61,439 nucleotides of DNA from Candidatus Acidiferrales bacterium (GCA_050014735.1 JBEKCU010000003.1:1-61439), one strand, 5' to 3'; numbered from the stretch's first letter, positions 21,817 through 26,220 are shown. Translations and numbers: made by a program. The notes: generated from the letters alone by a model not told the origin.

Positions 21817-23130
<1,314 letters not shown>

Positions 23131-23268
23131 TTGGAATTTTTGCACGACTGTCTTCGCAAACTAAAATGGCGAGAAAGGTGAGTCTATGCGATCACCAACG
23201 AGCCTTACACCAACTCGGGGTTCGCGCGGCGCTCACAAGAGGCGGGAGTCAAGTACGCAATCCCAATT

Positions 23269-23892
23269 GGTAGTGTCTCAGTTTGAAGTTGCGCCGTCCG
23301 CGGTGTAATCTCCAGCAAATGGTACCCCTGCCGATCCCGGTGGCCTTGGTTCCTTACGACCCCGAATGGCCGAATCTGGCAAAAATGCATTCAGCACGGT
23401 TGTCGATGCTCGGTTCGGTCCTTGTGATCGTTCATCATATAGGCTCGACTTCGGTGCCCGGCTTGGCCGCCAAACCGATCATAGACTTGATGCCATTGGT
23501 AGTCAGTTTGAGTGATCTGGATCGAGAACGGTCGCGTATAGAGACGCTCGGGTACGGTTGGCATGGGGAACTGGGGATACCGGGGCGTCGTTATTGCACC
23601 CTTTCGGACGAATTGGGTAACCGCATCGTTCAGCTACATTTCTTCTTGGCGAATTCACCGCAAGCAACGCGGCATCTTGCTTTCAGAGACTACTTGCGCG
23701 CCCATCCGGAGGAGCTGAAGGCTTACGAAAAGGAAAAGCAGAGGGCGCGCGACCTCTATCCAAGCGATTCCCATACTTACTCAGATGAGAAAGCCGCATG
23801 GATTCGGGCTACGGAAACCAAAGCATTGAGGTGGCTCGACTTGCAACAATCCGAGCATCATCACTAACCGAAAATCAATCTGAGACACTACC
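23269..23892. mobile_element. Transposase-less passenger cassette (MIC/MITE-like) carrying GrpB
   Basis: Perfect 13-bp terminal inverted repeats: GGTAGTGTCTCAG (23269-23281) and CTGAGACACTACC (23880-23892). They are directly abutted on the outside by perfect 8-bp direct repeats TCCCAATT (23261-23268 and 23893-23900). Confidence 0.6.
23319..23867 (+). CDS. GrpB/UPF0157-family (nucleotidyltransferase-fold) protein
   Basis: VALVPYDPEWPNLA...HHIGSTSVPGLAAKPIIDLMPLV...FRDYLRAHPEELKAYEKEK, typical of GrpB. I prefer ATG 23319 over the ORF-track TTG at 23283. Confidence 0.8.
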   Translation: MVPLPIPVALVPYDPEWPNLAKMHSARLSMLGSVLVIVHHIGSTSVPGLAAKPIIDLMPLVVSLSDLDRERSRIETLGYGWHGELGIPGRRYCTLSDELGNRIVQLHFFLANSPQATRHLAFRDYLRAHPEELKAYEKEKQRARDLYPSDSHTYSDEKAAWIRATETKALRWLDLQQSEHHH

Positions 23893-23944
23893 TCCCAATT
23901 ATTTTAGAGGCAATTCACACGAAATTCGCGTACACTAGTTTCGT

Positions 23945-24163
23945 ATGAAAAATGTCACCCTCAGTGCTGACGACGAACTAATCGAACGCGCTCGCCAAGT
24001 GGCCCGTTCCCAAAATAAGACACTCAATTCCGTCTTTCGCGAATGGCTACTGCAATTTACGCAGCAGGCCGGAAGCGCCCAGGAATATTCTTCCCTCATG
24101 AAGCGTCTGCGCCACGTGCGGCCCGGACGCCGCTTCACTCGCGACGAAATGAATGAGCGGTAA
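23945..24163 (+). CDS. vapB: Type II antitoxin (VapB-like)
   Basis: 72 aa, MKNVTLSADDELIERARQVARSQNKTLNSVFREWL. Overlaps the downstream PIN gene by 11 nt. Confidence 0.7.
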   Translation: MKNVTLSADDELIERARQVARSQNKTLNSVFREWLLQFTQQAGSAQEYSSLMKRLRHVRPGRRFTRDEMNER

Positions 24164-24575
24164 ATACTTTCTCGATACAAATATCTTCGTCTACTCATTC
24201 GACGTGGATGCACCCGCGAAGGCTGAGCGTGCGACCGAGTTGATTACCGACGCCGTCACCACTCGGAAAGGGATGGTCAGCTATCAAGTCGTTCAGGAAT
24301 TTTTCAACGTCGCGCTGCGGCGTTTTCGAAATCCTCTAAGCGCTGACGAGGCCCAGCAGTATCTGAGCGCGGTTCTTCGTCCCTTGCTGGTCGTGCATTC
24401 TTCAGAGGCATTGGTCAGGGAAGCCCTGGAAATCTCCGCACGCTATCAAGTTCCATGGTACGACGCGTTGATCATCAGGGGAGCCATACAGGCTCAATGT
24501 GAGATTCTCTACTCCGAAGACTTTCAACATGGCCAGAGATTTGACACGGTCAAAATCCAGAATCCATTCCTCTAG
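24153..24575 (+). CDS. vapC: PIN-domain toxin (VapC)
   Basis: 140 aa, YFLDTNIFVY...E...WYDALI...SED, the PIN acidic residue pattern. Confidence 0.85.
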   Translation: MSGKYFLDTNIFVYSFDVDAPAKAERATELITDAVTTRKGMVSYQVVQEFFNVALRRFRNPLSADEAQQYLSAVLRPLLVVHSSEALVREALEISARYQVPWYDALIIRGAIQAQCEILYSEDFQHGQRFDTVKIQNPFL

Positions 24576-24657: not shown

Positions 24658-26220
24658 ATGCGAAAACGACCGAAACCAATTGTACTGACCGTGCTCGATG
24701 GATGGGGCTACCGCGCCGAAACCAAGGGAAACGCAATTGCCCTCGCCCGGAAACCGAATTACGACCGCCTGCTTAAGGATTTTCCCAACACGCTGATCCA
24801 AACCTCCGGGCCGTTCGTTGGACTGCCCGAAGGGCAAATGGGTAACAGCGAAGTGGGCCACATGAACATGGGCGCGGGCCGCATCGTTCACATGGATATC
24901 ACGCGCATCGACCTGATGATCGCGAACGGGGAATTTTTCAAGCAGCCGCTGCTGGTCGAGGCCATGGAACGCGGCCGCGCTCGGAACCTGCACTTGCTGG
25001 GCCTGCTTAGCGATGGCGGTGTTCACTCGCACTTGCAGCACCTTTACGCGCTGCTGCGGATGGCGCGCGAGCAGCACGTCGAGCGTGTCTTCATTCATTG
25101 CTTCATGGACGGGCGCGATACTCCTCCGCACAGCGGCGTTGAATTCACTCAGCAATTGCAGCAAAAAATTCGTGAGATCGGTTGCGGGCGCATCGCGTCG
25201 CTGACCGGCCGCTATTATGCGATGGACCGCGACAATCGATGGGAACGCGTCGAGCGCGCCTATCGCAACGTCGTTCACGGCGAGGCCCCAGTGAAAGCGG
25301 CGGACCCAGTCGAAGCCGTGCGCCGCAGCTACGAACGCGGCAAGACGGACGAATTCATTGAACCCATCGTGATTACCGCAGGCGCTTCGCCGTCCGCGCC
25401 TCCTGTCGGACCGATTCGCGACGACGATGCCGTAATTTTCTTCAATTTCCGGGCCGACCGCGCCCGGCAGATGACGCGCGCCATCGCCGAACCGGGATTC
25501 AAGGAGTTTGCCGATCCGAAGCGCCCAACGAACCTTTGCTACGTCGCGATGACGCAATACGACAAGGCTTGGCCGTGGCTGCGGTACGTGATTGCTCCCG
25601 AAAAGATCGCGCACATTCTGGCCCAAGTGTTTGCAGAGCAAAACCTGAAAAATCTTCGCTGCGCGGAAACCGAAAAATACGCGCACGTAACATATTTTTT
25701 TAACGGCGGAGTCGAGAAGCCGTTTGGCGGCGAGGAGCGCGTCATGGTGCCCTCGCCCAAAGTGCCCACCTACGACCTGAAACCGGAAATGAGCGCCGCC
25801 GGAGTCGCCGACACAATCGTCAAGGCCGTCGAAAAAGGAGACTTCGACGCCATCGTGATGAACTTCGCCAATGCCGACATGGTAGGCCACTCTGGAAAAC
25901 TTGAAGCCACAATCAAAGCGGTCGAAACCGTGGACGAGTGTTTGGGCCGCATTCGGCAGGTTTTACATCCGCGCGGCGGCGCATGGATCATCACCGCGGA
26001 TCACGGCAACGCCGAAACCATGATCGATCCGGTCACAGGCGGCCCGCATACTTACCACACAACGAATCCCGTACCGTTGATCATTGCGACCGAAGATGGC
26101 ACCGGGCCGCTGGCGCCCGGCGGTTCGCTGCGCGATATTGCACCGACGCTGCTGGGAGTGCTGGGACTTCCCGTGCCTGGAGAAATGACGGGGCACGATT
26201 TGAGGCTGAAGAAGGCGTGA
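24658..26220 (+). CDS. gpmI: 2,3-bisphosphoglycerate-independent phosphoglycerate mutase
   Basis: [52 protein letters not shown]. Confidence 0.95.

Follow-up and report, generated by a model that had tools for sequence, protein, structure and literature searches.

This analysis concerns a 624-bp unit at 23269-23892 of a 61,439-nt stretch of DNA from Candidatus Acidiferrales bacterium (GCA_050014735.1 JBEKCU010000003.1:1-61439), which is called the window here. The unit lies between eno and gpmI. Very probably it is a mobile insertion cassette that carries grpB as cargo and derives, as a non-autonomous form, from an IS1-like insertion sequence (IS) family. The 8-bp direct repeat TCCCAATT was read at 23261-23268 and again, identically, at 23893-23900. 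These copies, the left and right target-site duplications, touch the outer ends of perfect 13-bp inverted repeats. The left 13-mer GGTAGTGTCTCAG occupies 23269-23281 and its exact reverse complement CTGAGACACTACC occupies 23880-23892. The initial annotation, which was made from the sequence alone, had reported this geometry, and its coordinates were read exactly as claimed. It had also noted that the likeness of the two ends continues inward; counted to 18 nt, 17 of 18 positions are complementary. The complete left terminal inverted repeat is GGTAGTGTCTCAGTTTGAAGT (23269-23289, plus strand), and the right one is GGTAGTGTCTCAGATTGATTT (23872-23892, read on the minus strand). Against a 21-nt consensus derived independently, from other genomes, they have one and three mismatches, respectively, and none of 100 shuffles gave any match.

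The 13-bp inverted repeat alone is unremarkable because another perfect pair lies within the same 4 kb. Roughly 1.8 such pairs (at most 2 kb apart) are expected per 61 kb, and TCCCAATT itself occurs four times in the window against 2.3 expected. When the abutting duplication is included, the expectation becomes 1.8 x 4^-8, or about 3e-5. The earlier judgement that the inverted repeat could be due to chance and the abutting duplication could hardly be is borne out by these values. The repeats at the borders of the unit were confirmed as real, and the weight comes from the abutting geometry, the consensus match and the evidence from the family.

One complete gene, grpB, is found inside the unit (23319-23867, plus strand). 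It codes for a 182-aa GrpB/UPF0157 protein with a Pol-beta-like nucleotidyltransferase fold. The probable start codon is ATG 23319 and the stop codon is at 23865-23867; the listing of open reading frames (ORFs) gives TTG 23283 as the start instead. The initial annotation had described a single complete GrpB ORF without a transposase and had proposed a Pfam search as a check. The protein matched Pfam GrpB (PF04229) with E 3.5e-44 and 151 bits against a cut-off of 25.5, and tblastn with the transposases of the family found none in the unit. The AlphaFold model of GrpB has a pLDDT of 88.5. The PDB entry 2NRK, 'conserved protein GrpB' from E. faecalis, was matched by sequence with E 5e-25 and superposes on the model with TM-scores of 0.83/0.91. 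The model also superposes on the C-terminal UPF0157 domain of mycobacterial CoaE (PDB 6N39, PMC2765170), and the window protein shares Pfam family and fold with both. Unlike the CoaE domain, it is a stand-alone protein on what is probably a transposable cassette. Pol-beta-fold nucleotidyltransferases showed only a distant resemblance. Apart from generic nucleotidyltransferases with a Pol-beta fold, the PDB searches by sequence and by fold returned nothing but the C-terminal domain of CoaE and GrpB proteins that are themselves uncharacterised. No PADLOC model matched GrpB, and the literature and PDB searches gave no function for a stand-alone GrpB.

Other elements with the same ends

The initial annotation had proposed a search for further copies of the ends and for an autonomous element with the same inverted repeats, and both were obtained. 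A scan with the pattern GGTAGTGTCTCAGNTTGA over one genome per prokaryotic species located it at no fewer than 120 genome loci, many of them in Acidobacteriota/Terriglobia, Alphaproteobacteria and Binatia. The window's own locus is not among the matches listed, to which the following counts of ends and pairs refer. The terminus consensus of the family is GGTAGTGTCTCAGTTTGAAAT. Over 133 ends, position 14, which is unconstrained in the pattern, is T in 96%, and positions 19-21 are conserved as A, A and T. The right end of the window unit has the minority variant A at position 14. Information content is about zero right outside base 1, and conservation fades past base 21-22. Given the nearly invariant position 14, the conserved positions 19-21 and a conservation that ends at base 1, these loci, at least 120 in number, are not chance hits. 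The ends form 55 inverted pairs with a spacing of 41 bp to 4.8 kb. Perfect 8-bp flanking repeats were found in 24 of the 55 pairs, and 11 more have repeats with one mismatch. Two bounded elements lie on complete plasmids of cultured strains. One is a 4224-bp element on plasmid NZ_CP011481 of Hoeflea sp. IMCC20628 with the perfect duplication GATGATTG, and the other is a 2634-bp element on plasmid NZ_CP041717 of Acidiphilium multivorum JZ-6 with the perfect duplication AAGCCGAG.

The make-up of the family was counted over 38 elements validated by duplications (L011-L130 of the matches listed, L222 and L223). Eleven have the size of MITEs, or miniature inverted-repeat transposable elements (41-304 bp), about eight are transposase-less units with one or two ORFs, two keep transposase fragments, and at least 17 hold a transposase together with other genes. 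A plain IS with the transposase alone was not present among the 38. The transposase-bearing copies are 2066-4790 bp long, and all contain passenger genes, with one to five extra genes between the ends. Single-gene cassettes with the family ends carry DUF4440/SnoaL (L015, 817 bp) and RibD_C (L038, 775 bp), and further transposase-less cassettes carry DUF1232, a methyltransferase or DUF1801. Since many cassette types share these ends, the window element is one of many cassette derivatives of the family. The passengers of autonomous copies include a helix-turn-helix protein with an M78 peptidase (ImmA/IrrE-like), SocA/Panacea, Fic, HNH, DNA methylase, ClpP/SDH proteases and a STAND NTPase. Nested IS66- or IS5-type transposases are found inside some of these copies. 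Many passengers of the transposase-bearing copies are toxin-antitoxin-like or defence-like. Autonomous elements with identical ends exist in metagenome-assembled genomes of Terriglobia and Acidobacterium (L026, L029). A full-text search of the literature located no description of the family end sequence.

Every long element has, directly beside one of its ends, an ORF of 281-312 aa that encodes a DDE transposase. It matched Pfam DDE_Tnp_IS1 with E 1e-8 to 1e-3, above the 24.1-bit cut-off in four of five proteins, and DDE_Tnp_IS240 was matched more weakly. The best NCBIfam model was transpos_IS1 (E 6e-16 to 5e-21), and the 59-76 bits obtained are under its curated cut-off of 100. The IS6 profile NF033587 gave E 4e-7 to 1e-3 and 18-30 bits against a cut-off of 125, always weaker than IS1. 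IS1595, IS256, ISL3 and IS481 were rejected as the parent family, since their NCBIfam matches were only marginal. The candidates listed by the initial annotation (IS256, ISL3, IS66, IS6 and IS1595) missed IS1, the family of the best-matching profile. Among four plasmid homologues (61-67% identical), three are labelled 'IS1 family transposase' by the NCBI annotation pipeline PGAP and the fourth 'helix-turn-helix domain-containing protein'. D78-E79, D150 and E214 are invariant in an alignment of 13 transposases, whose N-terminus forms a helix-turn-helix, and the block VERxNLxxRMxxRRFTRLTNAFSKK surrounds the catalytic E. This block resembles what we take to be the InsB region of IS1 near its own catalytic E. 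ISfinder presumably also has a single-ORF IS1 subgroup with passengers (ISMhu11), into which the family may fit and for which no confirming paper was found.

IS1 elements in ISfinder are 740-1180 bp long, have ends of the form GGnnnTG and direct repeats of 8-9 bp, and encode a DDE transposase that acts by a copy-and-paste or co-integrate route (PMC10425158, Table 8). The family ends, GGTAGTG, fit this form, the 8-bp duplication is within the IS1 range, and the DDE transposase has IS1 as its best profile. Classical IS1 differs in two respects. Its transposase comes from insA and insB' joined by a frameshift, whereas the family encodes its transposase, of about 300 aa and with an N-terminal helix-turn-helix, in a single ORF, and the transposase-bearing copies of the family, at 2066-4790 bp with passengers, are longer than the 740-1180 bp of classical IS1. 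IS1 is the best match, and the parent family appears to be IS1-like with a transposase score under the curated IS1 cut-off. It is unlikely that the family belongs to IS6/IS26 or represents a new family between IS1 and IS6. This assignment is kept as a minor alternative because IS6/IS26 has the same end signature: GGnnnTG ends and 8-bp duplications are common to IS6/IS26 and IS1 (PMC6807381). The weak matches to DDE_Tnp_IS240 and NF033587, the single ORF with an N-terminal helix-turn-helix as in IS6, and the scores under the IS1 cut-off are also in its favour. However, the IS1 profile is far better than that of IS6, the NCBI pipeline named three of the four plasmid homologues as IS1 family, and the likeness of the block at the catalytic E is to InsB.

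GrpB cassettes at other sites

Relatives of the window GrpB number in the thousands in soil and peat metagenomes. Eighty related GrpB loci were fetched with their flanks, and 25 of them have at least one recognisable end (no more than 4 mismatches in 18). Another 12 insertion sites have both ends (no more than 5 mismatches in 18), spaced from the start and stop codons as in the window, and a unit length of 613-625 bp. The look-ups of two closer homologues added L225 with both ends and L224 with a single end. Four GrpB cassettes have perfect 8-bp duplications of their own, namely GTTTCATT (L142), CGCATTTA (L144), GGATTACA (L188) and GATCCCGC (L189), and the duplication of L150 has one mismatch. 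The eno/antitoxin context of the window is common to L143 only, and the other sites have unrelated neighbours. Because GrpB cassettes of the same size and with the same ends occupy at least 12 other sites, several with their own duplications, the cassette moved as a unit. The architecture proposed by the initial annotation, a mobile insertion cassette, is therefore well supported by these copies and by the ends, the 8-bp duplications and the DDE transposase family found elsewhere. In a neighbour-joining tree, the end-bearing copies are scattered through most of the clade, at 61-91% identity to the window protein, and are interspersed with copies keeping one end or none. The simplest reading of this pattern would be an old cassette lineage that is still transposing and whose ends decay after fixation.

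The window cassette has a putative promoter at 23283-23311 on the plus strand, which was suggested by a comparative alignment of 13 GrpB cassettes. A -35-like TTGAAG (23283-88) lies inside the inverted repeat and is followed by a 17-nt spacer and a -10-like TAATCT (23306-11), and ATG 23319 starts 7 nt after TAATCT. The order TTGAAT, 16-17 nt, TAnnnT, 6-8 nt and start codon is kept in 12 of the 13 aligned cassettes, and the sequence of the spacer itself is not conserved among them. Other cassettes of the family did not show the TTGAAT/TAnnnT layout, which is specific to the GrpB cassettes. The alignment suggests a sigma-70-type promoter geometry, partly inside the left end, with the transcript starting at or beside the ATG, which would give a leaderless mRNA.

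No paper on GrpB carried in a cassette was found in the searchable literature, in agreement with the remark of the initial annotation that GrpB was not known as mobile cargo. Plasmid resistance islands with a gene of the GrpB family have been listed (PMC11137137). The GrpB homologue P0098 (Acidiphilium sp. AL), which is 68% identical, is found without inverted repeats at L227-L230. In at least two contexts (L227/L228 and L229) its neighbour is a serine resolvase gene, in a third (L230) the neighbouring gene is HicB-like, and RelB/ParE is also present in one context. GrpB may travel on other mobile elements too.

The eno-gpmI locus and alternative explanations

All genes around the cassette are on the plus strand. 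The enolase gene (21826-23130; Pfam Enolase_N and Enolase_C) is upstream. Downstream are a DUF6364-like antitoxin gene (23945-24163) and a PIN-domain toxin gene (24153-24575), both identified by domain search, and gpmI for 2,3-bisphosphoglycerate-independent phosphoglycerate mutase (24658-26220; Pfam iPGM_N and Metalloenzyme). No tRNA gene and no Rfam family at the gathering threshold was found in the window (1-61439). An 11-bp perfect inverted repeat is formed by AAAATAATTGG (23124-23134), across the eno stop codon, and CCAATTATTTT (23895-23905), which overlaps the right duplication.

The exact window GrpB protein is present on 13 metagenome contigs, all with the same locus and about 99.9% identical. 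At this site, the cassette is also found in a lineage with about 10% divergence (L136/L138/L143), and there its ends and duplications have six substitutions. The left junction in that lineage is TCTCAGTT followed by GGTAGTGCCTAAG, and the right one is CTGAGACGCTACC followed by TCCCGATT. The ends and duplications comprise 42 positions, none of which has changed in the window lineage. Since the diverged lineage has the cassette at the same site, the insertion predates the split of about 10% and was vertically inherited. The insertion at this locus is thus ancient and not recent. Against the sister lineage, grpB has a ratio of non-synonymous to synonymous substitution rates (dN/dS) of 0.27, which reflects purifying selection. 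The synonymous divergence from L138 is 0.215 for grpB and 0.23 for the PIN gene, about half of the 0.45 for enolase. The block of grpB and the toxin/antitoxin genes may have been exchanged by recombination after the lineages split.

A third lineage (L132/L134/L137) reads eno, 42 bp, antitoxin, PIN and gpmI, with no grpB and with an antitoxin protein identical to that of the window. The antitoxin and PIN toxin genes lie between eno and gpmI in all three lineages seen, with or without the cassette. The antitoxin protein is 100% identical across the lineages, and the enolase genes there differ by about 10-12% in nucleotides. The cassette is therefore polymorphic for presence and absence at this locus. 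Relative to the window, the L132-type lineage lacks 771 bp: besides the cassette, about 115 bp on the left side and about 16 bp on the right side are missing. The 5-bp direct repeat CACGA (window 23143-23147 and 23914-23918; L132:3958-4001) lies at the borders of this difference, which could be a microhomology deletion or an older, larger insertion. The check for an empty site proposed by the initial annotation was thus answered in part: a lineage without the cassette exists, and a clean empty site was not found, as flanking DNA is missing too. Near-identical contigs from different samples stop at the cassette borders. L141 stops at 23281, the last base of the left perfect 13-mer, and L005 and L006 stop at 23896, 4 nt into the right duplication. 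No sequence variant accounting for these stops was found.

The observations are best explained by transposition of a cassette which keeps only two transposase-binding ends of about 21 bp and one passenger gene, grpB. The DDE transposase of the family, presumably encoded elsewhere and acting in trans, would bind both ends. In the DNA between eno and gpmI, two cuts staggered by 8 bp would be joined to these ends, and gap repair would produce the TCCCAATT duplication. Expression of the cargo would be self-sufficient, as the inner part of the left end would give the -35 TTGAAG, the -10 TAATCT would follow, and the grpB mRNA would be leaderless. The diverged GrpB cassettes of 613-625 bp at many unrelated sites represent an old and repeatedly mobile type. 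The window copy is an old insertion, now inherited vertically, with its gene under purifying selection. With both ends intact to this day, it would remain open to mobilisation by a matching transposase, should the genome encode one. Several results weigh against this explanation. The tblastn search found no transposase in the whole 61-kb window, and no further copy of the ends was found there with up to 3 mismatches allowed. No element with both a transposase and grpB was found in the family loci (at least 120) and 90 further loci. The transposase itself scores under the curated NCBIfam cut-off for IS1. A generic consensus promoter scan did not call the TTGAAG/TAATCT pair, since only 8 of 12 positions match the consensus. 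There is no sign of recent movement of this copy, because the exact protein was found at only one locus in the 13 contigs. The clean empty site AAGTACGCAATCCCAATTATTTTAGAGG was not found via exact-protein look-ups with the antitoxin and enolase, and it was not searched as a DNA pattern.

The second perfect 13-bp inverted repeat within the same 4 kb and the fact that TCCCAATT is not rare in the window would agree with the view that an ordinary chromosomal grpB is flanked by chance repeats or lies within a local regulatory palindrome. This view has a negligible probability. Elsewhere, dozens of elements are bounded by this 18-21 nt terminus and each have an 8-bp duplication of their own, the external consensus is matched by both ends where zero matches are expected by chance, and GrpB relatives at unrelated loci have the same ends at the same distances from the gene. 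It is also very improbable that the unit was formed in place, by an internal deletion which removed the transposase from a larger transposon carrying transposase and grpB, so that the 624-bp unit itself never transposed. Deletion derivatives with transposase fragments are known in the family (L085, 994 bp; L106, 937 bp), and all autonomous copies seen carry passengers. However, GrpB cassettes of 613-625 bp with the same end-to-codon distances occupy 13 sites, five of them with perfect duplications, and independent deletions would not repeatedly yield the same product. No remnant of a transposase was found inside the unit, and the postulated parent with both genes was not encountered among the loci surveyed. 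By comparison, there is almost an even chance that the window copy is by now an immobile fossil, that is, a domesticated host gene with ends that no longer function and no matching transposase. An insertion older than the split of about 10% nucleotide divergence, the same locus on every contig with the exact protein, and the lack of a transposase in 61 kb are consistent with immobility. So is the dN/dS of 0.27, which points to retention for the benefit of the host, and many relatives across the GrpB tree lost one or both ends. On the other side, the 42 end and duplication positions are unchanged here against six changes in the sister lineage, and the autonomous elements in Terriglobia and Acidobacterium have identical ends. 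This alternative concerns present-day activity only and is compatible with an origin as a cassette.

Relation to known mobile cassettes and meaning

To our knowledge, mobile insertion cassettes seldom appear in annotations and no more than a handful have been documented, among them MIC231 of the Bacillus cereus group. A general definition of such cassettes is given in PMC3129680, and further examples are the cassette of Aeromonas plasmids with qnrS2 (PMC5444012) and the Tn3-family cassettes of Xanthomonas (PMC4337579). Like these, the window unit is transposase-less, has the inverted repeats of an IS or transposon family at its borders, and carries a coding sequence unrelated to transposition, flanked by the 8-bp duplication of the family; its movement by a transposase in trans is likewise presumed. 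It differs from them in its cargo, GrpB, and in its apparent parent, which is IS1-like rather than IS4/IS231, Tn3 or the IS with the qnrS2 ends. Its GrpB cargo diverged to 61-91% identity while the size and ends of the cassette persisted, and the left end appears to supply the -35 element of the cargo promoter. IS elements with passenger genes, called 'tIS' or transporter IS, have been described for IS1595 and other families (PMC3129680, PMC7986276). The autonomous members of the present family resemble them in holding one to five extra genes between the ends, whereas the window element, which has no transposase, is a cassette derivative. The window element is non-autonomous and has the same ends and duplication as the 41-304 bp copies of the family, as MITEs do, and unlike MITEs it carries a complete, selected gene. 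The kind of element is already known, and the IS1-like family ends and GrpB as cassette cargo were not found described in the searchable literature.

The IS1-like family is widespread in soil bacteria, with Acidobacteriota, Alphaproteobacteria and Binatia among its hosts, and many one-gene cassettes derive from it. For stand-alone GrpB/UPF0157 proteins, a large family whose structure has been solved, the GrpB cassette gives a first concrete starting point. Because this clade travels as a self-contained and apparently self-promoted mobile unit of 0.62 kb, the function of GrpB would be one that pays off at once in a new host. The lesson for annotation is that an old transposon insertion can present itself as a 'housekeeping-looking' gene between eno and gpmI. 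We also propose, as a speculation with a low probability, that GrpB is more than passive cargo, that an entire GrpB clade of soil and peat bacteria spread and persisted mainly as a self-expressing, single-gene cassette of the IS1-like type on account of an immediately selectable nucleotidyltransferase benefit, and that the family serves as a transposon-based gene-cassette system. If this is true, the benefit of GrpB might be, for example, the modification of an antibiotic or toxin or the countering of a host defence. The family, with its many different one-gene cassettes, its MITEs and its passenger-laden autonomous copies and without a plain IS, would then be functionally comparable to integron cassettes.

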